Shown here one piece after another: positions 48,761-62,003 of a DNA stretch of 64,000 bases (positions are counted from its first letter, which is position 1; every line of letters begins with the position of its first letter). The position numbers and the translations under genes are program-made. The notes beneath the pieces are model-generated. The model was not told the DNA's origin. It saw nothing but the letters and a program-made list of their open reading frames with translations, and made no database searches. This DNA is from a virus: positions 64,001-128,000 of the IMG/VR virus record IMGVR_UViG_3300033273_000392. One strand, 5' to 3'.

Positions 48761-48792
48761 AAAAAAAGCCCAAACAAAAAAATGTTTGGGCT
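48761..48792 (-). terminator. Intrinsic terminator overlapping the upstream part of the early promoter
   Basis: AGCCCAAACA-A6-TGTTTGGGCT perfect 10-bp stem plus T-run on the minus strand. Confidence 0.75.
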
Positions 48793-48818
48793 CTTAATAT
48801 TGTTAAAATATGTTAAAA

Positions 48819-49313
48819 TCAGTCGCAGTTTCCTTCAGCTTCTGTCTCTATGTCTTCAACGTAAATCTTAGAGCTATCAATCCACCTATACTTCCTTGCG
48901 ATATTAGTAACTAGCTTTACGGAAGGAGAGAAGTAGTTAACTGCATCTGTAGATTCACATTCAGCATCCTCAAAGTCAAATACAAACTTCCATGCAAGAG
49001 AACCTACATTTACAGTTCCATCTCCATTAGCAACATAGTCCACATACGAATCATCAATAGGCTCTAGTGGAGTGTACATCTTAAAGTTGCTTATCATTCT
49101 TTTACTAAAGCTATTAAAGTGCCTTTGACAAAGAGCGTCTATTTCAGCAATAAAATCATTGAACTCATCAGCAGGAACATCGCTTGCGTTCTTTTTTGCA
49201 GATATCGCAAGATCAAAATCAGCAGATCCTTCTGACATACAATCTACCTCCCACTTTGGGTCTGGTCCATAGTACTCGTTTACGAAATCTCTAAATCCAC
49301 CTACGTGCTTCAT
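48819..49313 (-). CDS. Leader-bearing acidic hypothetical protein
   Basis: MKHVGGFRDFVNE; GATATATA at 49333-49340. Confidence 0.55.
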   Translation of the reverse strand: MKHVGGFRDFVNEYYGPDPKWEVDCMSEGSADFDLAISAKKNASDVPADEFNDFIAEIDALCQRHFNSFSKRMISNFKMYTPLEPIDDSYVDYVANGDGTVNVGSLAWKFVFDFEDAECESTDAVNYFSPSVKLVTNIARKYRWIDSSKIYVEDIETEAEGNCD

Positions 49314-50389: not shown

Positions 50390-51337
50390 TTAACTTTGAA
50401 TTTCAAATCTGTCAGGCTCAAGATCTAACGTCTTTTTATCTAGATATTCACTAAAATCAGATAACTCCTTATCAGCATCATCAGATAACTCCCTTCCATA
50501 GAAGTCCTTAAATAGAACTCTATATGCCTGAACAGTTATATCAAATGGTACACCTGGTTGTGAATTACTTTCTATAATGTAAACCTTTCCGTCTTTGTCC
50601 TCCATCACATCAAAGCAAATGTATGGGAGATCTTTGAATATCCTGCAATACTTGGATATGACTTCTTTAAAGGAATCAGGGACGTTCTCTGGATTTCTCT
50701 TTATATACTTAAACGACATCTTTTCCTCTCCCTTACCATCTCCACTTTTAGCTTTGTCGTTCATAGGCTTTCTTTCCATCCATGCAAATATCTCGCCTTT
50801 AAAGCAAACTAGACGATGCTCGGATTTCTTATCAATATATTGTGAATAAACTTCTAGCTTACTATGGTCTGCTGAATCAAATGACTCCTGATCCTTAAAA
50901 ACTTGAATGCCTAGGCCAGAATGTCCGCTAGACGGTTTAGCTATCATTGGAAAACCTATCTTCTCGATAGCTTCATCTTTATCAAAAGAAGTTTTAGGAA
51001 TATTTTCATCGTCACCGACAATCTCATGGAACTTCTTTTTTGACCCCGACATTTCAATAAACTCTGGCTTATTGTACACTTTATCTGGATCGATAAGGCC
51101 ATCATCAATAAGAGCCTTTACTACTTTGGAATTATACGTCAATACAGGAAACTCTGGATTTATCTCCATGTCCTTGTAGTTATCTAAATTAACCTGTACA
51201 AAGAAGTTATCGCCAGCAAAGCCTTTATAGCTCCACCAGCGATGACCACTTTTAGGATCGATAGCAAGATAGATTTTATGTAAATCTCCTTGCCTCTTCT
51301 CAGAAACAAACTGTTCAAAAAGCTTGAATTTACCCAT
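50390..51337 (-). CDS. Leader-bearing ATP-grasp ligase (RimK-like)
   Basis: Start MGKFKLFEQFVSE at 51337 after GATATATA; 'FPMIAKPSSGHSGLGI', 'QYIDKKSEHR', 'FDVM', 'IIESNSQPG'. Confidence 0.8.
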   Translation of the reverse strand: MGKFKLFEQFVSEKRQGDLHKIYLAIDPKSGHRWWSYKGFAGDNFFVQVNLDNYKDMEINPEFPVLTYNSKVVKALIDDGLIDPDKVYNKPEFIEMSGSKKKFHEIVGDDENIPKTSFDKDEAIEKIGFPMIAKPSSGHSGLGIQVFKDQESFDSADHSKLEVYSQYIDKKSEHRLVCFKGEIFAWMERKPMNDKAKSGDGKGEEKMSFKYIKRNPENVPDSFKEVISKYCRIFKDLPYICFDVMEDKDGKVYIIESNSQPGVPFDITVQAYRVLFKDFYGRELSDDADKELSDFSEYLDKKTLDLEPDRFEIQS

Positions 51338-51353
51338 AAGGTATATATCCAAG

Positions 51354-51791
51354 TTAGCTTCCAGGAAAAACTTCGATCGTTCTTTCTTCTTTAACTAAAT
51401 CGCCCCATACTCCAGAGTAGCGAGTACCCTTTACAATATGATTGTCAATCCAATGGTAATGACCGCCTCTTGGCTTATTCATAAGAAGACCATGATACTT
51501 AAAGCCATGTTTATCAAGCCACTCCTCGGTAATATCTCTCACATCCTCAGTACGAGATGTAAAGAATGTGATTATATGTCCCTCGTCGTACCAGCGGTTT
51601 AGTGTTTCTACTGCATCTGGAAATGGAAGAACATGTTTCATTCTTTCAGGCTCCTCATTAGGTACATCATCAGTTACCGTTCCATCGATATCGATTAAAT
51701 AGTTTTTAACACCTTCTGGTAATTGTGGACTTGCCAAATGTCCCTCGTCGTCAAACGCCATATTAAGCGCTAAGTTTATTTCTTTCTTCAT
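51354..51791 (-). CDS. HAD-superfamily phosphatase (Flavobacteria-type family)
   Basis: 'NYLIDIDGTVTDDVPNEEPERM', 'FFTSR', 'KPRGG.YHWIDN'. Confidence 0.8.
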   Translation of the reverse strand: MKKEINLALNMAFDDEGHLASPQLPEGVKNYLIDIDGTVTDDVPNEEPERMKHVLPFPDAVETLNRWYDEGHIITFFTSRTEDVRDITEEWLDKHGFKYHGLLMNKPRGGHYHWIDNHIVKGTRYSGVWGDLVKEERTIEVFPGS

Positions 51792-51797
51792 GTTGAA

Positions 51798-53105
51798 TTA
51801 GTTTTGTTTTCTCATAAAAGACACGCAGATATATCTTTTTCCAGAGTATATCGGACGTGCGCCGTGAAGGTGTGTGACCATTCCAGGATGGAGAGTAGCC
51901 GTTCCTACTCTTTCTGGATTAGATAGTAAGTTGTATTTAGGGAACCATGTTCCGCCGCCATCAAATTCATCATTTAGTTTTACAACCATTGTTATATGGC
52001 TAAAGTCATGATGTAGTGACAAGTGAGACTGCCGGTCTGTCGTGTATCTTGCTAAAAAGTTTTCACTAAACATGGTTCTCCAACCCTTTCCTTCTAGTGT
52101 CCATAGATGAATACAGAGAGGGTATATAACCTCTTTAAGAACTCGACTATAAATGTTTTGAAGGCCTATGTCTTGCAAAAGCACGTCGTTAGTTGGATAA
52201 AACTCATGTCTATCTACAGTCCAATTATCTTTAGCTTCTGCCAATGCAATTGCATCTTTACAGAATTTTTCAGTAAATAGCTGAAACTCAAACACGTTGT
52301 CACCTAGATCATCAATCATAAGATCGTATTCTCCTTTACGCAAAGTCGTATTTACATACTTTTGCATCCAAGAATCCCAATCAGAGTCATCTAGAATTTC
52401 AAAGTACTCATTGGTTTGTGGATTACCGTGCCCGATAGTAGAAGTTTGTGCATTAGACGTTTGCTTTATCCAGTCTACTTTAGTAGCAAATGCCTTTATC
52501 TTCTTTTCAGGAAATAGTTCATTTACATCGTTTCTAGGATGCCGCAAAAAGGTAGCCGGTAAAAACTCATCAACTGGGATTATATTAGATCTAAGATTTA
52601 CGTAATCTAAGAGTTTACTAGCACCGACCTTAGTAAGAACGTATGCATGTGAACAATATGAGTTTAAAGGCATACATATATCTTCAGTAACTGAAAGCTC
52701 TGCTTCTTTGTTCAGCGCGTTTCTACCAAGATATATGAAATCCCATTTAGGTACTTTATCTAAATTTAATTGGCTAATTGCCTTTACTCCTTTAAAGTCC
52801 TCTTCTAGAACTAAAACGACATCTTCATCTCCTTCCGCAATCTTTTTCCATATTTCCATGTGACTTAACGTACATCCTATTTCACCTGGAAGTACTTGCC
52901 TATTCCACCAATCGTTATTAGAACCTTCAAGCTTCCATCCAGAATACGCTGAAAATGGCTCTATATTACTAGGTACATTATTTCCGTCAATTGCTGTAAA
53001 GATCTCGTACCCTGCTCTATTGCTTAGACCGAGTTTTCCCATTCGATCTATAATATCTGCATTAGACTTTTTAAGATTAATTACATAAATCTTTTCTATA
53101 TTCAT
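51798..53105 (-). CDS. GT25 (COLGALT-like) glycosyltransferase fused to a PLOD-like 2OG-Fe(II) lysyl hydroxylase
   Basis: Start MNIEKIYVINL at 53105 (ATGA overlap). GT25: GEIGCTLSH, LVLEED, WDFIYLGR, PVDEFLP. LH: YPTND, NFLARY, LHHD, GGGTWFPKYN, HPG..THLH, GKRYICVSF. Confidence 0.85.
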   Translation of the reverse strand: MNIEKIYVINLKKSNADIIDRMGKLGLSNRAGYEIFTAIDGNNVPSNIEPFSAYSGWKLEGSNNDWWNRQVLPGEIGCTLSHMEIWKKIAEGDEDVVLVLEEDFKGVKAISQLNLDKVPKWDFIYLGRNALNKEAELSVTEDICMPLNSYCSHAYVLTKVGASKLLDYVNLRSNIIPVDEFLPATFLRHPRNDVNELFPEKKIKAFATKVDWIKQTSNAQTSTIGHGNPQTNEYFEILDDSDWDSWMQKYVNTTLRKGEYDLMIDDLGDNVFEFQLFTEKFCKDAIALAEAKDNWTVDRHEFYPTNDVLLQDIGLQNIYSRVLKEVIYPLCIHLWTLEGKGWRTMFSENFLARYTTDRQSHLSLHHDFSHITMVVKLNDEFDGGGTWFPKYNLLSNPERVGTATLHPGMVTHLHGARPIYSGKRYICVSFMRKQN

Positions 53106-54127
53106 AGTGATTCTATAAGTTTTTTCCAATCGTACGACCTCGATGACCACGTTTGATTCTTGGACCAGCTGATACAATCCTTCCGTATCCTTTCTATTAT
53201 GTTAGAACTGCTATGTTCTAATATAGATGTGGCTTCATTATATCTACTAACCTTATAATCTAATATGATTCCGGAATGTATTGTTTCATTTAAAGCCGCA
53301 ATATTAGTAGTAATCGGTATCACGCCCGCGTATTGCATTTCTAAGGCAGTAATACAATACGTTTCTTCATATCCTGTTAAATACATCCAATAGTCTGACT
53401 TAAGCATTGCTGCGTGCAAATCTTCTTGAGAAACACTTCCGTGAATAGTAATTCCATCTTGTCTTACTAAATGAGATAATCTATCCATATCGCCAGAAGC
53501 ATAGTCAGGATAGTATACGTTTAACGTGGCTTCTGGTTTTACTTCTTTTATTCTACTCCAGTTTTCTAATAAGTGTGATAGCCCCCTACTCGGCGCAGAA
53601 CTCCATATAAAACTATCCTTTATCTTTCTAGGTCTTCCATGAAACGAGCTAAGGTCTATCCCATTCCCTATGACTTCTATATTATCAACACCATACTTAT
53701 TTGACCATTGATTTTTATGCCATTCGGTAAGGCATACTATTTTAGAAAGCTTTTGATTATTAAGAAGCGTTTTACTTTGGGGAATCTTCTTTCCGTTCCA
53801 CCAAGCGTGATAGTCTGTATTGTGTGCCCAAAAGATCTTCTTAGCGCCATATTTCTCGAACTCTAATAAGAAGTGGATATAACTAGCACCTATAATTACA
53901 TCAAAGTGATTAAAGTATTGCTTGTGGAGTTTATGCGTGGGAATCCATTCTACTAAACCAAACTTTCCAGGAAGAACATTCCCAGATACGAATACTTCCC
54001 AACCAAACCTGCTTAGCTCTTCAGAAAGCTTTATGCATGCTAGTTCTGTACCTCCAATACCGGAAGTCTTAATAGTATCTGGATTAAATGGCTTCTTCTG
54101 ATAGCCTACATAAATTAGTATGCGCAT
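53102..54127 (-). CDS. GT-B glycosyltransferase (GT4-like)
   Basis: 'GIGGTE', 'FWAHN', 'VIGNGID', 'SSAPSRGL', 'ETYCITALE', 'AALNET'. Confidence 0.85.
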   Translation of the reverse strand: MRILIYVGYQKKPFNPDTIKTSGIGGTELACIKLSEELSRFGWEVFVSGNVLPGKFGLVEWIPTHKLHKQYFNHFDVIIGASYIHFLLEFEKYGAKKIFWAHNTDYHAWWNGKKIPQSKTLLNNQKLSKIVCLTEWHKNQWSNKYGVDNIEVIGNGIDLSSFHGRPRKIKDSFIWSSAPSRGLSHLLENWSRIKEVKPEATLNVYYPDYASGDMDRLSHLVRQDGITIHGSVSQEDLHAAMLKSDYWMYLTGYEETYCITALEMQYAGVIPITTNIAALNETIHSGIILDYKVSRYNEATSILEHSSSNIIERIRKDCISWSKNQTWSSRSYDWKKLIESL

Positions 54128-54154: not shown

Positions 54155-54364
54155 TCATTCCTGAGACGAGAGATGTTCAACAATAAGACATGGTTTACAA
54201 TAACGACATGATACTTCGGTGCCTATTTCTTCATCATCGGAAGGAAGCTCGTGTGTTTTCCATTCAAAATCAAAAACACCGTTATCGTCATATACGTTAT
54301 ACGCGCCGGCTTCACATTTAGAAGTACCGCTTGACATTGTTTGTTGGCAATTAGTGCAATCCAT
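54155..54364 (-). CDS. Small Cys-rich protein
   Basis: CxxC at the N-terminus and CxxCxxC near the C-terminus. Confidence 0.55.
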   Translation of the reverse strand: MDCTNCQQTMSSGTSKCEAGAYNVYDDNGVFDFEWKTHELPSDDEEIGTEVSCRYCKPCLIVEHLSSQE

Positions 54365-55281
54365 TATTCTTCTCCTGTTACTGTTATACCATCCAGGGCA
54401 AAGTCAGCTCTAAAATATTTTACATCCGACATGACAAAATGAAGATAAACTGAGGATTGACCTGCAAGTGAGTTTAAGTCTACTTCTGCCTTTCTCCAAA
54501 GAGCTGAGTTTGATGTTTGTTGACCTCCTGAAATTCTATTTGATGTAGCTGTCGTAGATCCCGTATCATTCGTCCATCTAGTTATATTCAATCCGCCAGT
54601 AGAAACGTTTTGTAAACCTGAGTTAGTTACGACCTCTGATATTCTACTAGAGTCGGTTGCTGAAGTTGTAGCGGCAATTGCAAAGTCATGTGATGTTGAA
54701 TCTGAAGACGCAGTGGCTAGAGAGTATATATGAAACCAAAAATTTAACTTAAGTGTATTATTACTTAACGCGTTACTAAAATCAAGCTCTGGTGAAATTA
54801 GGGCATGTGCTTGCCCACTACTAGAATAACCGCCACCGGCTGCAGCAGATGACGATTCATAATAGATGTATCGATTCGTGTTACTTTGTGTTCCTGTAGT
54901 AGCACTTACGCCGCCTGATAAACCACCGTTAGGACCAGTCCCTGAAGATCCTGTTGCATTATAGTCAAATCTCCATCCATACGTACCAACTAAGGTAGAA
55001 CTAGATGGGTTTACATTAAATGTTTGTGAGTACGCTCCTGGCAAGCCAAATACCACATGCGAGTCTATACCAACAGTCCATCCAGTAGGCAGCATTTGTG
55101 AAGTATATCCACCGGTCGTCCAATCTTGAGTAAGATAAGTTGTAGCCGTGCCACTGCTACCTGAGCCTCCACCAGACGATCCCCTAGCAAAACCTAAAAG
55201 TTTATTTATGCTAGACCATCCACGCCCAGTTCTTTTTGAGATGTTACTTACGTCTACTCCTGTCTGTTTAGATATTGCCAT
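54364..55281 (-). CDS. Virion-associated protein with MAM-like beta-sandwich domain
   Basis: 'SSGTGP', 'YIYYESS', 'LISP', 'LNFWFHIY', 'WRKAEVDL', 'DFALDGITV' follow the MAM-domain pattern. Confidence 0.55.
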   Translation of the reverse strand: MAISKQTGVDVSNISKRTGRGWSSINKLLGFARGSSGGGSGSSGTATTYLTQDWTTGGYTSQMLPTGWTVGIDSHVVFGLPGAYSQTFNVNPSSSTLVGTYGWRFDYNATGSSGTGPNGGLSGGVSATTGTQSNTNRYIYYESSSAAAGGGYSSSGQAHALISPELDFSNALSNNTLKLNFWFHIYSLATASSDSTSHDFAIAATTSATDSSRISEVVTNSGLQNVSTGGLNITRWTNDTGSTTATSNRISGGQQTSNSALWRKAEVDLNSLAGQSSVYLHFVMSDVKYFRADFALDGITVTGEE

Positions 55282-55292
55282 GTGTAGTTAAT

Positions 55293-58200
55293 TTAGGTTA
55301 ATTCTACCCAATCGTCAGACGGTCTAAAATATAGAAGACTTTCTGAAGGCTTAATTAAATATCCGACAATTCTAACTATTTCTCCGCTTCCATTAGGAGC
55401 TGTTAATGTAAATTGCCCGGCAGTTGTTGAAAGATAAACTATATCGCCAGGCTGTCCTCCAGTAAGGCTGTTTCCTGCTTTTACAACTCCATCTAATACC
55501 ATTTCTTGAGAAGATGTAGCAGTAGTTGCAACCGCTAATAATCCACGAGCATTAGTCTCACTGTCTGCCCGTGCCGTACCCCAAGTTGCGTTTCCGCCCC
55601 CACTCTTAAATTGGTATAATTCCCCAGCAGTTACCGTAAAGTTAGCTGAAAAGTTATGTGCCGTTCTAGTTCCTGGATAAAATTGACCTGATGAAACAGT
55701 TCCTGTTTTATGAGTTTTAACCTTAATATCGTTAGCGTAAAAGTCAGTATTTACTGTCATCCCAAAAGAGTTAACAGTAATATCGGATTCAACAGTAGCA
55801 CTACTTCCACCATTAAAAGTTAATAATCCATCTAGGGTTGATCCTGTGAGGTTTAAAAGACCCTTTTCTCCTTTTTGACCCTTTGATCCAGAGGCACCAG
55901 CGGCACCTTGAGCTCCAGCGGCACCTTGAGCTCCAGCGGCACCTTGTGCTCCAGCTGCACCTTGTGCTCCAGCTGCACCTTGAGCACCTTGAGCACCTTG
56001 TGGTCCAGCAGGACCTTGAGCACCTTGAGGTCCAACTGCACCCTGGTTACCTTGAGCACCCTGTGGTCCAACGTTACCTTGAGCACCTTGAGGTCCAACT
56101 GCACCCTGGTTACCTTGAGCACCTTGTGGTCCAACGTTACCTTGAGCACCTTGAGGTCCAACTGCACCCTGGTTACCTTGAGCACCTTGAGGTCCAACTG
56201 CACCCTGGTTACCTTGAGCACCTTGTGGTCCAACGTTACCTTGAGCACCTTGAGGTCCAACTGCACCCTGGTTACCTTGAGCACCTTGTGGTCCAACGTT
56301 ACCTTGAGCACCTTGAGGTCCAACTGCACCCTGGTTACCTTGAGCACCCTGTGGTCCAACGTTACCTTGAGCACCTTGAGGTCCAACTGCACCCTGGTTA
56401 CCTTGAGCACCTTGTGGTCCAACGGCACCTTGGTTACCTTGAGCACCCTGTGGACCTAAGTCACCTTTAACACCTTGAGCACCTTGAGGTCCGACTGCCC
56501 CTTGGTTACCTTGAGCACCTTGAGGGCCTACATCACCTTTAATACCTTGACCACCTTGTGGACCTAAGTCACCTTTAACACCTTGAGCACCTTGAGGTCC
56601 GACTGCCCCTTGGTTACCTTGAGCACCTTGTGGCCCAACTGCCCCTTGGTTACCTTGAGCACCTTGAGGGCCTACATCACCTTTAATACCTTGACCACCT
56701 TGTGGTCCAACATTTCCTTGAGCACCTTGTGGCCCAACTGCCCCTTGGTTACCTTGAGCACCTTGAGGACCTAGATCACCTTTAATACCTTGATCTCCTT
56801 TTTGACCTTGGTCTCCTTTTTGACCTTGTGGACCCTGTGGACCTACATCACCTTTAATACCTTGGTCTCCTTTTTGCCCCTTGTCTCCTTTTGATCCAGT
56901 CGGGCCTTGAGCTCCTATAAGCTCATCTTCTATCATAAGTAGAAGCGCTGGGGTTCCATTAGAAGAAGATACCATACCGTTAGAGTTAACGAATGAGCCC
57001 TCGCCTTGAAGAAGGATATCTCCGCCATCAGATCTTGTGAAGTTAAGATAGCTTATATTCTTTGTAGTAACATTTACTTCTAAGCCTAATGCCTCTGTAA
57101 ATGTAGCTCCGGTGTAATCTGCAAATGAAGAATCACCGGTAATTACTACATCCTTACCTGCGCCTGAAGTTAACATTAATCCAGGATATTGGCTTTTAAA
57201 GTTAGCTTGATCCCATACAAACGTGCTAGCTACAATGTCTACGTTTCCTGCTGTAAATAGTTGATTTAGATCTTGCGCTATTATATTTGCAGAAAAAGTG
57301 TTATATTGAACCCCGCCGCCTGCATTGTATATTGTATCAGTATTAAAACCTGGCGAGTATGTTATTGAGTTAGTACCGTCTGAAATGCCAACGCTAGGAA
57401 GCTGTGCGGCGGCCTGTCCAACCTGTTTAAGAATAATCATTACATCTCCATTCACTGGTTGAGTAACCTTTCCTGAATAGTTTTCTGCATTAGGTAGATA
57501 TATTGAGGCAGTAACATGGTGGCTGCTAGTAGTTAAGTTAACCTCATTCCTTATTTCTGCAGAAGTTTTAGTTACACCAGCTCCAAGGGGAGCAAATATG
57601 TTAACATCATTAATAACTAAAGAGTCGCCTTCAACCATTCCTACGTTAACAGTGTCAGCCTGTATAACTGTTGGAATTGCATCTTTGAAATGTAAGAACA
57701 TTTCATTGTTTCCAAGAGATGGATTTGTTGTTAGCTCACCGTGTGATGAGGTTGATGCGTAATAAACATCTCCAATAGAACCTGTAAGTCTTTCAGGAGC
57801 CGTAAAGTCATCTATAATTTGATTGAACGGCTTTATGTAGGCTACCGTATCATTATACGTTTTGCTAACTACATAGCCTAACTTATATGCATTTGCTCCT
57901 GGCGAATTTATTGGTATTAGATCCCCACTAGAATCTATAGTTACAACATCTCCTACTTCAATAGTAGTCTGTGGTACATCAAACTTAAGTCTATAACTTT
58001 CGCTCTTCTCCTTTACCTGGAATCTAGCTTGTATCTTATCAATTGAGCCTACGTTAGCCTTAAAAAAGTAGTTGCTATTACCTGCAATTATCGCCTCTCC
58101 AGAATCAGATACCTCAAAGGCACAGATTCTATCACCAGCAGAAAGAACATTTGTTCTATATGTCTTGTGCACATATGCGTCGATATCTTCAACTACGAAT

Positions 58201-58508
58201 GTTATTTCATTCGCATTAGTATCAATCGATATTATCGACGTTATCTTTAGACAGATATTTCCAGTAGCGTCTGCAATCCAATCTCCGGTTTTAATATCAA
58301 GAACAGAGTACGTATATGCTTCTCTAGTAGCTGCGGACCCAGTGGTAACCGGCTTAAATCTAACTGTCATTCTAAACGATATAGGCACATTAAGCCCACT
58401 AGGGCCTAGGCCAGTATCGTCATCGTGTTCGTATCTCGAGACTATTAATATGGAGCCTATCTCTCCTTGTAAAAATAATACAGGTGTATCTGGATTGTAT
58501 ATTGCCAT
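55293..58508 (-). CDS. Collagen-like fibre protein 1
   Basis: About 117 uninterrupted G-X-Y triplets between globular domains. Confidence 0.85.
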   Translation of the reverse strand: MAIYNPDTPVLFLQGEIGSILIVSRYEHDDDTGLGPSGLNVPISFRMTVRFKPVTTGSAATREAYTYSVLDIKTGDWIADATGNICLKITSIISIDTNANEITFVVEDIDAYVHKTYRTNVLSAGDRICAFEVSDSGEAIIAGNSNYFFKANVGSIDKIQARFQVKEKSESYRLKFDVPQTTIEVGDVVTIDSSGDLIPINSPGANAYKLGYVVSKTYNDTVAYIKPFNQIIDDFTAPERLTGSIGDVYYASTSSHGELTTNPSLGNNEMFLHFKDAIPTVIQADTVNVGMVEGDSLVINDVNIFAPLGAGVTKTSAEIRNEVNLTTSSHHVTASIYLPNAENYSGKVTQPVNGDVMIILKQVGQAAAQLPSVGISDGTNSITYSPGFNTDTIYNAGGGVQYNTFSANIIAQDLNQLFTAGNVDIVASTFVWDQANFKSQYPGLMLTSGAGKDVVITGDSSFADYTGATFTEALGLEVNVTTKNISYLNFTRSDGGDILLQGEGSFVNSNGMVSSSNGTPALLLMIEDELIGAQGPTGSKGDKGQKGDQGIKGDVGPQGPQGQKGDQGQKGDQGIKGDLGPQGAQGNQGAVGPQGAQGNVGPQGGQGIKGDVGPQGAQGNQGAVGPQGAQGNQGAVGPQGAQGVKGDLGPQGGQGIKGDVGPQGAQGNQGAVGPQGAQGVKGDLGPQGAQGNQGAVGPQGAQGNQGAVGPQGAQGNVGPQGAQGNQGAVGPQGAQGNVGPQGAQGNQGAVGPQGAQGNVGPQGAQGNQGAVGPQGAQGNQGAVGPQGAQGNVGPQGAQGNQGAVGPQGAQGNVGPQGAQGNQGAVGPQGAQGPAGPQGAQGAQGAAGAQGAAGAQGAAGAQGAAGAQGAAGASGSKGQKGEKGLLNLTGSTLDGLLTFNGGSSATVESDITVNSFGMTVNTDFYANDIKVKTHKTGTVSSGQFYPGTRTAHNFSANFTVTAGELYQFKSGGGNATWGTARADSETNARGLLAVATTATSSQEMVLDGVVKAGNSLTGGQPGDIVYLSTTAGQFTLTAPNGSGEIVRIVGYLIKPSESLLYFRPSDDWVELT
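55863..56915. repeat. Collagen-coding tandem repeat (9/27/36/63-bp periodicities)
   Basis: Recurrent units encoding [27 protein letters not shown] and GxKGD. Confidence 0.9.
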
Positions 58509-58523
58509 CTATGTTAGTTGTCA

Positions 58524-61500
58524 TTAGAACGTGAATATGAGATACACGTGGGGGTCGACTCTATTTTGAAGAGGTGCTGAGTAGCTGTTTCCATACTTTA
58601 CAACACTTTGTTCAACTGGAATTGTCATGTCATATGAAGAGAAGTCAGCACTAAAGTTAGTTCCAGACCATTGTCCAGCAAGACCAGATCCACCTTCACT
58701 TGTAGACTGGTAGGTAAACGCTGTTTTAACAGTGTTGTATGTTATTTGCGCAATATCGTCATTATCAAAATGAGTTACCTTATATGTCATAGTCTTTGGA
58801 TCTAACGCATATGCAAATATAGAAATAGGTGGTCTAGATCTGTTAAATGATACGGTTACGTAGTGGCCAGAATTACCAGTACCTACTGTTTCAGAAACGA
58901 CAGTTGCTGTACCGGCTCCAGGGTTTACATATCCAGTAGCTGCAACAAAGGTGGAGTTACCGCTTATAAGTGCCTCGTTCTGATCATACTCAAGTCTTAG
59001 TAGGAACTGTTCAGACCCACCAACTCCAGTTGGGCCTAGTTCACCTTTTTGTCCCTTGACGCCTTGAGTACCCTGAGTACCTTGGTCACCCTGCGGACCG
59101 GTTACACCGATCTCACCTTTAGTTCCAGCTGCACCCTGAGATCCAACTGGTCCTTGTGGTCCTACTTCACCTTTATCACCGGTTGCTCCAACTTGACCTT
59201 GTAGCCCAACTGGACCTTGTGGTCCGATTGCACCCTGCGGTCCAACTACCGTAGAATCTGCTCCTTTATCACCCTTGTCTCCCTTGTCACCCTGTGGACC
59301 TTCAATAGAAATCGCACCTAGTGTTGTAATAACATAAGAGTAATCAGCGGTTCCTTCAGTATAAAACTTGATAGCATGGGACTGATTGTCAGGGTTATTT
59401 GCGTAGATCCTTACAATCATTCTGTCACCTGTATTCAAAGTGGTGTGTGGGAACTCAAAATCAAGATCCATTTCAACTGGAGTGGTGTTATTAGTGTCCC
59501 ATCCAATAGACTCTACTTCAGTAGTACCTAAACTATTAATTGTGCTTAAAGTTGAATCTGCGCGTAAAAGTTCTACATAAATCTGAACATTATCTGCCTC
59601 ATTAAGCTTAGTAAAGTGCAAGTGGAATCTCTGAATTCCGGCAGGTATAAAGTCATATTGATCTAGCTCTCCTGCATCTGTAATAAATTGTGCAACAAGA
59701 ACCTGACTTGAATTATTATTAATTGTTACATTTGTAATTTGCTGTGACGCCTGCGTTTGTGCATCATCTACTTCATAATACCCTGTTGGGCTTTGAGCAA
59801 CTGACGTATTTAAGTAGTAGATTCTACCTGTAGTTATACCGTCTTTACCAGTAGCTCCTTGTGGTCCAACATCTCCCTTTTCACCTTTATCTCCAGTAAT
59901 ACCCTGTAGTCCTTGTAAACCGACAGAACCCTGTGGGCCTTGTGGACCTGGAATTGTAGAAGGCTCTCCTTTATCGCCAACAAGTCCTTGTAAGCCGATA
60001 GGACCTTGTGGACCTGGAATTGTAGATGGCGCGCCAGTAGCTCCAACATTACCCTGTGCACCTTGAGGTCCAACATCTCCCTTATCTCCTTTAGGACCTG
60101 GAACTGATGAATCAAATCCTTTATTACCCTTTTGTCCAACTTGACCCTGTGCACCAACTTCACCTTTTTGACCCTTTTGTCCAACTAGACCTGCACCTCC
60201 CTGGGCTCCCACTTCACCTTTTTGACCCTGTGCTCCATGTGAACCAGTAGGACCTTGTGGTCCAAGTGGACCTTGTGGGCCTATATCTCCCTTAATACCC
60301 TGAGCACCTTGTAAACCAACAGAACCCTGTGGTCCAGTTGGACCCTGCGGTCCAGTTGGTCCGCCTGATCCTCTTAAAGAAGATGTTGTATAATCGCTTA
60401 TAGTTATAGTTCCACCTTCAGTAGAATGATCGGCCGGCGGGTCAACAGTAGAATCGCAGTAGTAGTATAGTGTTGCAGGTGCGCTTAACGGTACTACAAA
60501 TTCGATATAACCTCCAATACCGCCATATGCTCCGTTTAAGGTTACTCCATCAGTATATTCAGTTCCTCCATTATGTGTACCCCCATCAGTAGTTGAAAAC
60601 TTAAAGAAGTGATCGCGCATCGATGAATGATTTACATCAAATCTATACACTTGACCTCTAAAAAATTCTAAAGACGTATTTTCACCATTACCAACATAAA
60701 AAACAGAATCCCCTGAGCCGTTTGTACCTGTAGTGACCTTAAATCTACCTGAGTATGTGGGATCTCCAGTGCTACCTTGTGGTCCGGTCTCACCGGTACC
60801 GCCAGTTTCACCCGGCTCACCCTTCTGACCTTTACTCCCTCCAGGGCCCTGAGGACCTGTATCGCCAGTAACACTTAATCCTATATCACCCTTCTCTCCC
60901 TTTTCTCCAGTAGCCCCACTAGGACCTTGCGCTCCTTCTTGTCCAGTATCTCCCTTTAATCCTTGTAGACCTACGCCAATATCACCCTTCTCTCCGGTAG
61001 GACCCTGAGGACCTGCTACTGTAGAGTCGGCGCCCGTTGGACCTTGAGCGCCTTGGGCACCTGTTTCACCCTTCTCTCCTCTTTCTCCTTTTAGTCCCTG
61101 GGGCCCTTGTGGTCCTTCATCCCCTTTAAGCCCAGCTGAAGTATATGCGTCTAAAGAAAGAGATATGTTTTGATTTAGTGAAAACTTAGTAAGAACATTA
61201 TCAGAAGAAGAGTGAGAGCGATATGTTACTGTTATGTCGTAAACAACCGGAGTTTGACTGCCCGACATTACGTGATTAGTCATTTGCCATGAAACTATAT
61301 CGTATATGTAGTATTCATACGGTCTATCAACATCAGTAACTACCATGTAAACTCCTGAGCTCTGGCTTCCAGTCTGGAAGAGCTCGGTTAACACGTAATC
61401 CAAATACTCGTTTGTATATCCTCTAACGTCTTTAAAGTGAACCTGTATAGAAGTTACATTCCTAGGATCTGAAGATTCAAAACTTATTCTTCCAGGTACT

Positions 61501-62003
61501 GGGAAATCCCCATTAGTAGCACCAACTGCATATAAAGATGCTGGGGTTATGAATCTATCGTCTACTAATCCAAAAGATTTAGAAGATGCGCTAGGGGTAT
61601 ACAAAGAAACCACTGCTATAATTAGCTTTGGCATTGTCGTAGTTATAGTGCCGACAATATATCTTGATCTGACAAGTTCTACTTCTGCATGAACTGATCC
61701 TATTCTAAGATTCGAAGTGTCATTTTCGTCTAAAATAAACTGTATTAGTCCTTCTTCGCCATTTGCAGAGTTACCTATGAAAAGACTATCATTTCCAGGA
61801 GTACTAGCTTTAGAATATGTTTTAAAGTGAATGCCTTGGTCATCGTATAGGCGAACTATAACGTTATCGTAGTTAGATAAATCTACTTGATCGTTAATTA
61901 CGTCACGGTACATTACTATACCGAAAGTAGTCTGTGATCCCTGGCTAATATTCTGTACCTGAGATATGTATGCAAAGAAGTTTTCTTTTATAACGTATGG
62001 CAT
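58524..62003 (-). CDS. Collagen-like fibre protein 2 (three interrupted collagen segments)
   Basis: G-X-Y runs at about 60770-61135, 59835-60372 and 59020-59300, separated by globular domains; GATATATA at 62031-62038. Confidence 0.85.

Follow-up and report, generated by a model that had tools for sequence, protein, structure and literature searches.

Hydroxylysine (Hyl) bearing O-linked sugars has been regarded as a hallmark of animal collagens, with mimivirus as the sole case outside them. In humans, LH3 (PLOD3; PDB 6fxk) and COLGALT1 (9evj), joined in the KOGG complex (8zgc), convert Lys to 5-Hyl at X-Lys-Gly and then O-glycosylate it (PMC11897130). In mimivirus, a single protein of 895 amino acids (aa), L230, contains a GLT25D1-like glycosyltransferase (GT) at residues 1-194 and a PLOD-like lysyl hydroxylase (LH) at residues 537-895 (PMC9614988, PMC9546862, PMC5802723). 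Here we analyse a gene that fuses a family 25 glycosyltransferase (GT25) to an LH domain in a 64,000-nucleotide stretch of viral DNA (the window, meaning the whole stretch analysed), which corresponds to bases 64001-128000 of the 149-kb IMG/VR record IMGVR_UViG_3300033273_000392. Our analyses support, with a probability of about 75%, its interpretation as a compact enzyme with two activities that modifies collagen and is encoded by a large tailed phage from the sea.

According to section 3.3.3 of PMC9614988, which cites Luther 2011, L230 hydroxylates Lys and then glucosylates the product on viral and human collagen peptides, and the hydroxylation and glucosylation of mimivirus collagen in vitro are reported in PMC9614988 and PMC9546862. 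A 2022 review considered bacterial collagens mostly unmodified and dismissed those of phages as short segments (PMC8968730); Iyer et al. 2010 had predicted that other bacterial 2-oxoglutarate (2OG) dioxygenases modify collagen-like proteins (PMC2938197). No paper on a phage lysyl hydroxylase or a GT25 collagen enzyme was found among open-access papers and preprints.

The phage protein resembles L230 in its N-terminal COLGALT1-like GT and C-terminal PLOD-like LH within one chain, in its Fe triad and 2OG-binding Arg, in LH domains about 30% identical and superimposable at 1.8 Å (L230 structures 6ax6 and 9nev), and in being viral and encoded alongside collagen-like proteins. It differs in that L230 has approximately 340 extra residues between the domains, where the phage protein has a short linker; long relatives of the L230 type carry a GT_PLOD domain (PF25342) in mid-chain, for which the phage protein gives no match; the LH domains belong to long-form and compact clades, respectively, separated by a branch with SH-aLRT 99; one virus infects amoebae and is a giant virus whereas the other is a tailed phage; and no GT4 partner is reported for L230, whereas the phage has a coupled GT4 gene. 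The human system has homologous LH and GalT-C catalytic units, in which HxD...H, the Arg and E-x-D are likewise conserved, and the same chemistry in the same order is predicted for the phage. It is, however, built from two secreted multi-domain proteins forming a heterotetramer in the endoplasmic reticulum, and its second sugar is added by the GT-A domain of LH3, whereas the candidate for this step in the phage is an unrelated GT-B enzyme (GT4).

Proteins of the cultured tailed cyanophages S-PRM1 (AXN58392), S-8S55 (WLW37668) and S-CAM9 also have an N-terminal GT25 and a C-terminal LH, and their gene directly follows a collagen-bearing tail fibre gene and two prolyl 4-hydroxylase (P4H)-like genes. 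These proteins are longer (614-621 aa), carry the PLOD GT domain in mid-chain, are about 30% identical to the window protein and fall in the long-form LH clade. They are annotated as hypothetical proteins or generic oxygenases (PHROGs phrog_61, '2OG-Fe(II) oxygenase'), and no functional study of them was found in the open-access literature. A preliminary description of this DNA had proposed that a bacteriophage encodes a one-chain hydroxylate-then-glycosylate collagen enzyme, citing L230 as a viral LH/glycosyltransferase. The domains, the phage origin and the reference to L230, for which PMC9614988 reports both activities, have held; the fusion itself is not unprecedented, because L230 already has the one-chain design. 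What is new here is a compact L230-type form, with a separate LH clade, a GT4 partner and a tailed phage as host.

Domain identity and catalytic residues

The gene is one open frame whose product begins with GT25 and ends with LH, as the preliminary description had claimed, and the motifs it had quoted for each half are all present in the 435-aa product. Its ATG at 53105 overlaps the stop codon of the upstream GT4 gene (ATGA) and corresponds to the start position in 82 aligned homologues (consensus MxIDKIY...); a longer reading from a TTG at 53177 was rejected, since the homologue alignment favours the ATG. No NCBIfam model matches the enzyme. An AlphaFold2 model built with the 82 homologues (mean pLDDT 91) consists of two compact domains connected by a low-confidence linker at residues 225-231. 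When the Foldseek comparison that the preliminary description had suggested was made, the two halves returned COLGALT1 and LH3/L230.

In the N-terminal half, Pfam Glyco_transf_25 (PF01755) matches residues 4-181 with 62 bits against a cut-off of 24. Among PDB sequences (phmmer), residues 2-209 match human COLGALT1 (9evj/8zgc_U) at E 1e-17 over chain residues 312-525, which represent the catalytic GalT-C domain, and the GT half searched alone reaches E 4e-18; the bacterial GT25 8xlz is found weakly, at E 0.06-0.2, the match at E 0.06 covering 35 residues. Foldseek searches of the PDB placed COLGALT1 at E 5e-17 to 4e-16 (4.7e-17 for 9evj; root-mean-square deviation, rmsd, 3.4 Å for 9evk), with bacterial GT25 only at 1e-7. 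Bacterial GT25 enzymes of lipopolysaccharide (LPS) or lipooligosaccharide synthesis, such as the beta-1,4-galactosyltransferase 8xlz, share the Pfam/CAZy family and the GT-A fold, but differ in their weak similarity, their lack of an oxygenase fusion and their glycolipid acceptor. Judged by sequence, the GT half is COLGALT1-like rather than LPS-GT25-like, in agreement with the earlier proposal.

The E101-x-D103 motif aligns with E435-x-D437 of COLGALT1, and S81 with S415. A 2025 cryo-EM study identified E435-x-D437 as the real, non-canonical Mn site of GalT-C and S415 as a contact of uridine (PMC11897130). Across 36 diverse members of the family, aligned down to 26% identity, E101 is invariant and D103 occurs in 35; conservation is at least 90% for both D103 and S81. 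GalT-N was not found in the protein, which thus has a GalT-C-like domain alone in place of the two domains of COLGALT. The preliminary description had further assigned the Hyl to Gal-Hyl step to this half. Homology to hydroxylysine glycosylation stands, but Gal as the sugar does not follow from it: the donor cannot be read from the sequence, because the homologous domain of L230 transfers Glc, using UDP-Glc (PMC9614988).

In the C-terminal half, residues 244-431 match the LH domain of mimivirus L230 (6ax6) at E 9.5e-23 and human LH3 (6fxk) at E 5.8e-21 in the phmmer search of PDB sequences, with Bacillus prolyl 4-hydroxylase far weaker at 2e-3, and Pfam gives a sub-threshold OGFOD2-like match at residues 236-335. 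Mimivirus R655, at 4e-4, also trails the LH and COLGALT1 matches widely. In Foldseek searches of the PDB, LH3 chains are found at E about 1e-24, and 6ax6_B superimposes with a TM score of 0.88 by target and rmsd 1.8 Å over 203 columns, in comparison with 1e-5 to 1e-6 for prolyl hydroxylases and 4-6 Å for P4H, PHD and other oxygenases. P4Hs (PBCV-1 vCPH, 5c5t; Bacillus anthracis, 3itq) are alike in their 2OG/Fe(II) double-stranded beta-helix and in acting on collagen-like repeats outside animals, but they represent another subfamily (E 2e-3 in sequence) and target Pro. The oxygenase half is therefore, on these matches, PLOD/L230-like and not P4H- or TET/JBP-like; a grouping with P4Hs or nucleotide oxygenases, which the preliminary description had named as speaking against its PLOD-like assignment, was looked for and was not observed.

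H365, D367, H414 and R424 align with H825, D827, H877 and R887 of L230, whose roles are described in PMC9614988, so the iron triad and the Arg ten residues past the distal His, here inside GKRY, are intact as first reported. The three iron ligands are kept in 32-34, and R424 in 32, of the 36 family members. Chance cannot account for matches of this strength. V410 aligns with L230 L873, a hydrophobic contact near the C-terminus in the tail-to-tail homodimer that L230 needs for activity, and is V, I or L in 34 of the 36; a predicted complex of two LH copies (residues 232-435) scored 0.33 against a mark of 0.42, with one control at 0.42, and counts neither for nor against a dimer. The GT(PF25342)-AC-LH architecture of PLODs is absent, with no Pfam match to PF25342 in the 435-aa chain.

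Distribution and architectures of the family

The preliminary description had left aside how widespread the fusion is. It proved to be very widespread in public data, under generic labels only. A collection of 5.8 billion sequences yields 360 matching clusters (90% identity; 239-762 aa); the best 120 of these are full length and 53-97% identical, derive from seawater or Tara-type metagenomes on contigs of up to about 250 kb, and are labelled only 'GR25 family glycosyltransferase involved in LPS biosynthesis' or 'hypothetical'. One member of the P0012 cluster is recorded in a 104-Mb contig, an assembly of eukaryotic size. A search for longer forms returned 68 clusters (90% identity), all but one of them GT4-GT25-LH.

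Among 1.84 billion representatives at 50% identity, 3465 match at E <= 1e-3 and 156 at E <= 1e-30. Within the best 150 representatives of this search, GT25-LH (40; 215-938 aa, so partly not compact) and GT25-GT_PLOD-LH (38; 627-1541 aa) are the commonest architectures, followed by stand-alone LH (30), GT4-GT25-LH (23; 739-858 aa), stand-alone GT25 (10), GT_PLOD-LH (4), GT4-LH (2) and a permuted LH-GT25 (2; P0336/P0352). One 598-aa protein (P0227) carries a C39 peptidase at the N-terminus of GT25-LH. In 39 of 46 non-redundant viral loci a GT4 either neighbours the enzyme or is joined to it, the latter as an in-frame fusion in 25. The GT4 protein of the window shares 33-35% identity along its entire length with the N-terminal region of two such fusions (P0354 and P0208).

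In the ESM Atlas, compact clusters and a form of about 618 aa are assigned to Uroviricota, an 881-aa form to Nucleocytoviricota and 728-aa PLODs to chordates; clusters of the GT25-LH architecture are 97-100% viral, mostly Uroviricota. The Atlas also contains a cluster of 533-aa Uroviricota proteins combining GT25 with a TET/JBP oxygenase, which may attach sugars to oxidised bases of DNA.

A maximum-likelihood tree of 141 LH domains (quick search, midpoint root for drawing only), in a set of 150 listed representatives that includes no animal PLOD, shows two groups separated with SH-aLRT 99: one holds the long forms, among them the cyanophage clade, and the other the forms that are compact, GT4-fused or stand-alone. 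Many changes of architecture occur within this second group. Residues 240-435 also have stand-alone LH counterparts of about 240 aa (47-51% identity) on Thiotrichaceae chromosomes and in one Aquificaceae metagenome-assembled genome (MAG) (L097-L104, L105), among them those of Thiothrix fructosivorans and a Thiolinea MAG (Table 1).

Collagen-like genes upstream and the probable function

Two genes for collagen-like fibre proteins, the predicted substrates, lie upstream of the enzyme gene on the same strand. PHROG tail-fibre families match fibre protein 1 through the collagen repeat only. Its one uninterrupted repeat is listed in Table 1 and contains 14 Lys at Y and none at X, in contexts that include GIKGD, GQKGD and GVKGD, that is, X-Lys-Gly. 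In fibre protein 2 the 126 triplets are spread over ten segments and contain 27 Lys at Y against one at X. Taking both proteins, Lys occurs 41 times at Y and once at X, always before Gly, and Pro 60 times at X and four times at Y. X-Lys-Gly is the site of lysyl hydroxylases, and the presence of collagen genes rich in it directly upstream provides the substrate context for the collagen reading first put forward in the preliminary description. A third collagen open reading frame (ORF) of the record has a short segment with four Y-Lys in 15 triplets.

The same pattern recurs in related loci. Over 9361 triplets from 43 non-redundant loci, Lys occupies Y in 15-21% and X in 0.3-0.4% of triplets. Where 3 kb or more of upstream flank is available (25 loci), 17 loci have a same-strand collagen ORF in it; on the downstream side one occurs in just 2 of 44. 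All five records without a collagen gene in the fetched flank have collagen ORFs elsewhere.

Several observations weigh against the interpretation as a collagen-modifying enzyme. The function of the phage members rests on homology and context. In the non-redundant set, an upstream collagen ORF is missing from 8 of 25 loci where the flank reaches 3 kb or more and from 7 of 20 where it reaches 6 kb or more, and the nearby collagen ORFs of some relatives are almost free of Lys (L015, L017, L029). The enzyme is without the GalT-N domain of COLGALT1 and the GT and AC domains of PLOD, which are complex-building parts in animals, and the equivalent of COLGALT1 R354 is poorly aligned, falling on I18 with R21 nearby. 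Finally, the LH domain may accept other substrates, because Thiotrichaceae LH genes occur without collagen neighbours: those of L105 and L102 are surrounded by housekeeping genes, and no collagen ORF was found within 8 kb of the LH gene in L097-L099, L102 and L105, although both Thiotrichaceae genomes checked carry collagen ORFs elsewhere.

These last points bear on the first alternative, in which the enzyme would modify a target other than collagen, either the host envelope (its glycans or LPS, for superinfection exclusion) or a non-collagen protein of host or phage, the collagen genes simply sharing a variable host-recognition region with it. The GT25 family takes its name from LPS enzymes and public annotations refer to LPS biosynthesis, glycosyltransferases of pelagimyophage host-recognition clusters have been proposed to change the O-chain of the host (PMC7029224), a collagen ORF is missing within 10 kb in some loci, and the Thiotrichaceae homologues lack a collagen neighbour. 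We nevertheless consider this alternative unlikely, given a GT domain some 16 orders of magnitude nearer to COLGALT1 than to the solved bacterial GT25, its fusion to an LH-type oxygenase (every characterised relative of which acts on peptidyl Lys), the upstream rather than downstream position of the collagen genes, and a roughly 50-fold bias of Lys towards Y in the neighbouring collagens.

A second alternative retains collagen but assumes a single activity on it: LH would form Hyl, with GT25 and GT4 glycosylating other acceptors (Ser/Thr or a glycan), or else LH would be a non-catalytic scaffold. The GT catalytic residues are poorly defined even in L230, because targeted mutants gave unstable protein, and glucosylation is unconfirmed on mimivirus particles (PMC9614988); 'silent' GT-like domains exist in both COLGALT1 and LH3 (PMC11897130, PMC13382579). 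The residues for Fe and 2OG, the E-x-D motif and the Ser are, however, all conserved across 36-82 diverse members, the linkage of GT25 to LH recurs across several architectures and clades, and both activities of L230 are reported on peptides in the section of PMC9614988 cited above, which together make this scenario quite improbable. DNA hypermodification, with a base oxidised and then glycosylated as in JBP/base J or T-even glucosylation, was rejected as very improbable, for the oxygenase half is an LH (E 1e-22, rmsd 1.8 Å) with no TET/JBP match in Pfam or solved structures and its neighbours are fibre genes, not genes of DNA metabolism, despite the GT25-TET/JBP phage fusions mentioned above and one weak PHROG match labelled 'DNA endonuclease'.

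The identity of both domains, their fold and catalytic residues, the gene context and the distribution of the family are direct observations. Under the preferred reading, that of a bifunctional collagen-modifying enzyme, we infer what is modified, in which order, with which sugars and to what effect in the fibre as follows. During infection, in the bacterial cytoplasm, the LH domain would hydroxylate the Y-position Lys of G-X-K-G sites in still-unfolded chains of the collagen-like fibre proteins that the phage itself encodes upstream. The GT25 domain would then move a hexose from a UDP-sugar onto the new hydroxyl, either Gal, as in COLGALT1, or Glc, as in L230, and the coupled GT4 would probably add a further sugar. 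It can be proposed, more tentatively and as a rather doubtful extension, that LH, GT25 and GT4 form a module building a Hyl-linked di- or oligosaccharide on phage collagen-like fibres, a full counterpart of animal collagen lysine processing, and that the phage pool has served as a reservoir for the enzymes of giant viruses and possibly of metazoans.

If the preferred reading is true, hydroxylation and glycosylation of collagen Lys would be common in ocean phages, decorating host-recognition fibres and affecting how phages adsorb, how stable their fibres are and which hosts they infect. A cytoplasmic enzyme of 435 aa without accessory domains would offer a minimal model for the mechanism of LH and COLGALT and a possible tool for producing modified recombinant collagen in E. 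coli, and the compact, GT4-fused, GT_PLOD-containing and stand-alone forms would provide material on the origins of the animal enzymes.

Source phage and gene neighbourhood

The record (CheckV completeness 43%) encodes a baseplate wedge, a head maturation protease and a helicase nearest to those of jumbo phages, with best matches in a 462-kb uncultured phage (44%) and Tenacibaculum phage PTm1 (34%). On the basis of these genes its source is a large tailed phage, and together with the viral composition of the Atlas clusters they bear out the bacteriophage origin claimed at the outset. Megablast of window positions 45-55 kb against a phage collection gave no match. Among the sequencing runs listed as sharing sampled words with it there is no RNA run, and the DNA runs, from seawater, marine and estuary metagenomes, share at most 0.39 of the words; these runs were used to judge neither expression nor habitat.

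Table 1. Positions of the features discussed, in window coordinates unless a contig is named
Feature	Position	Strand	Description
Collagen-like fibre protein 2, predicted substrate	58524..62003	-	1159 aa; PF01391 E 5e-45
Collagen-like fibre protein 1, predicted substrate	55293..58508	-	1071 aa; PF01391 E 1.6e-51
Triple-helix segment, fibre protein 1	55854..56915	-	residues 532-885; 118 unbroken G-X-Y triplets
305-aa protein	54364..55281	-	Gly/Ser/Thr-rich N-terminal part; between collagen 1 and GT4
69-aa Cys-rich ORF	54155..54364	-	open frame only
GT4-type (GT-B) glycosyltransferase	53102..54127	-	Pfam PF13439/PF00534; ATGA coupling to GT25-LH
GT25-LH gene (P0001)	51798..53105	-	435 aa + stop; frame free of stops; motifs present
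GT25 domain, COLGALT1 GalT-C-like	52440..53105	-	residues 1-222; Pfam PF01755; sequence and structure matches
E101-E102-D103 codons, E-x-D metal motif	52797..52805	-	aligned to COLGALT1 'FEDD'
LH domain (PLOD/L230-type 2OG/Fe(II) oxygenase)	51801..52400	-	residues 236-435; 6ax6 and LH3 matches
H365, D367, H414 (Fe triad) and R424 (2OG) codons	51834..52013	-	span enclosing these codons; L230 alignment
HAD-type phosphatase	51354..51791	-	Pfam LNS2/HAD; 6 nt downstream of enzyme gene
ATP-grasp (RimK/R2K-like) protein	50390..51352	-	weak Pfam ATP-grasp matches
Terminator-like bidirectional hairpin	48764..48795		strong; 13 pairs; T-runs on both strands; downstream of gene 48819..49313
Stand-alone LH, Thiothrix fructosivorans ATCC 49748	L105 7815-8597
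Stand-alone LH, Thiolinea MAG	L102 7866-8597

From 62003 down to 50390 all genes are co-oriented and closely packed, in the order collagen 2, collagen 1, 305-aa protein, 69-aa ORF, GT4, GT25-LH, HAD and ATP-grasp. A scan of this cassette revealed no convincing internal terminator and fewer sigma-70-like sites than in shuffled sequences, and the hairpin in Table 1 is the first convincing terminator past the fibre and modification genes. The HAD phosphatase follows the enzyme gene, and the ATP-grasp gene is syntenic, in 14 of 46 related loci each; a role of these two proteins in further modification of the fibre is conceivable. The 305-aa protein has no match in Pfam (even at E 1), NCBIfam or PHROG, the 69-aa ORF has no family match (Pfam even at E 1), and neither has a counterpart in related loci, the membership of the 305-aa protein in the module being uncertain. 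Three ORFs of 183-197 aa on both strands at 55853-56470 (e.g. 55883..56470, +) are other-frame by-products of the G-X-Y repeat rather than genes.

Of 43 non-redundant loci from the set L001-L087, 33 have a P4H-like gene (PF13640) between their collagen genes and GT4 (e.g. L004 8223-8837). In the collagens of related loci Pro occupies X in 21% and Y in 1.6% of triplets; the target of this gene product cannot be an animal-type Y-Pro, because Pro sits at X and rarely at Y. X-Pro reaches 25% in the window record, yet neither a PF13640 gene nor an NAD-epimerase (PF01370) was found in its 149 kb, which represent a genome about 43% complete.

A comparable cassette occurs on a 24-kb contig (L096) from a Flavobacteriaceae MAG bin, which encodes two collagens with 87 Y-Lys followed by ORFs whose size and order are those of the P4H-like, GT4, GT25-LH (59% identity), HAD and ATP-grasp genes of L004. 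This cassette and the likeness of the helicase to that of Tenacibaculum phage PTm1 are hints of a Bacteroidota host.

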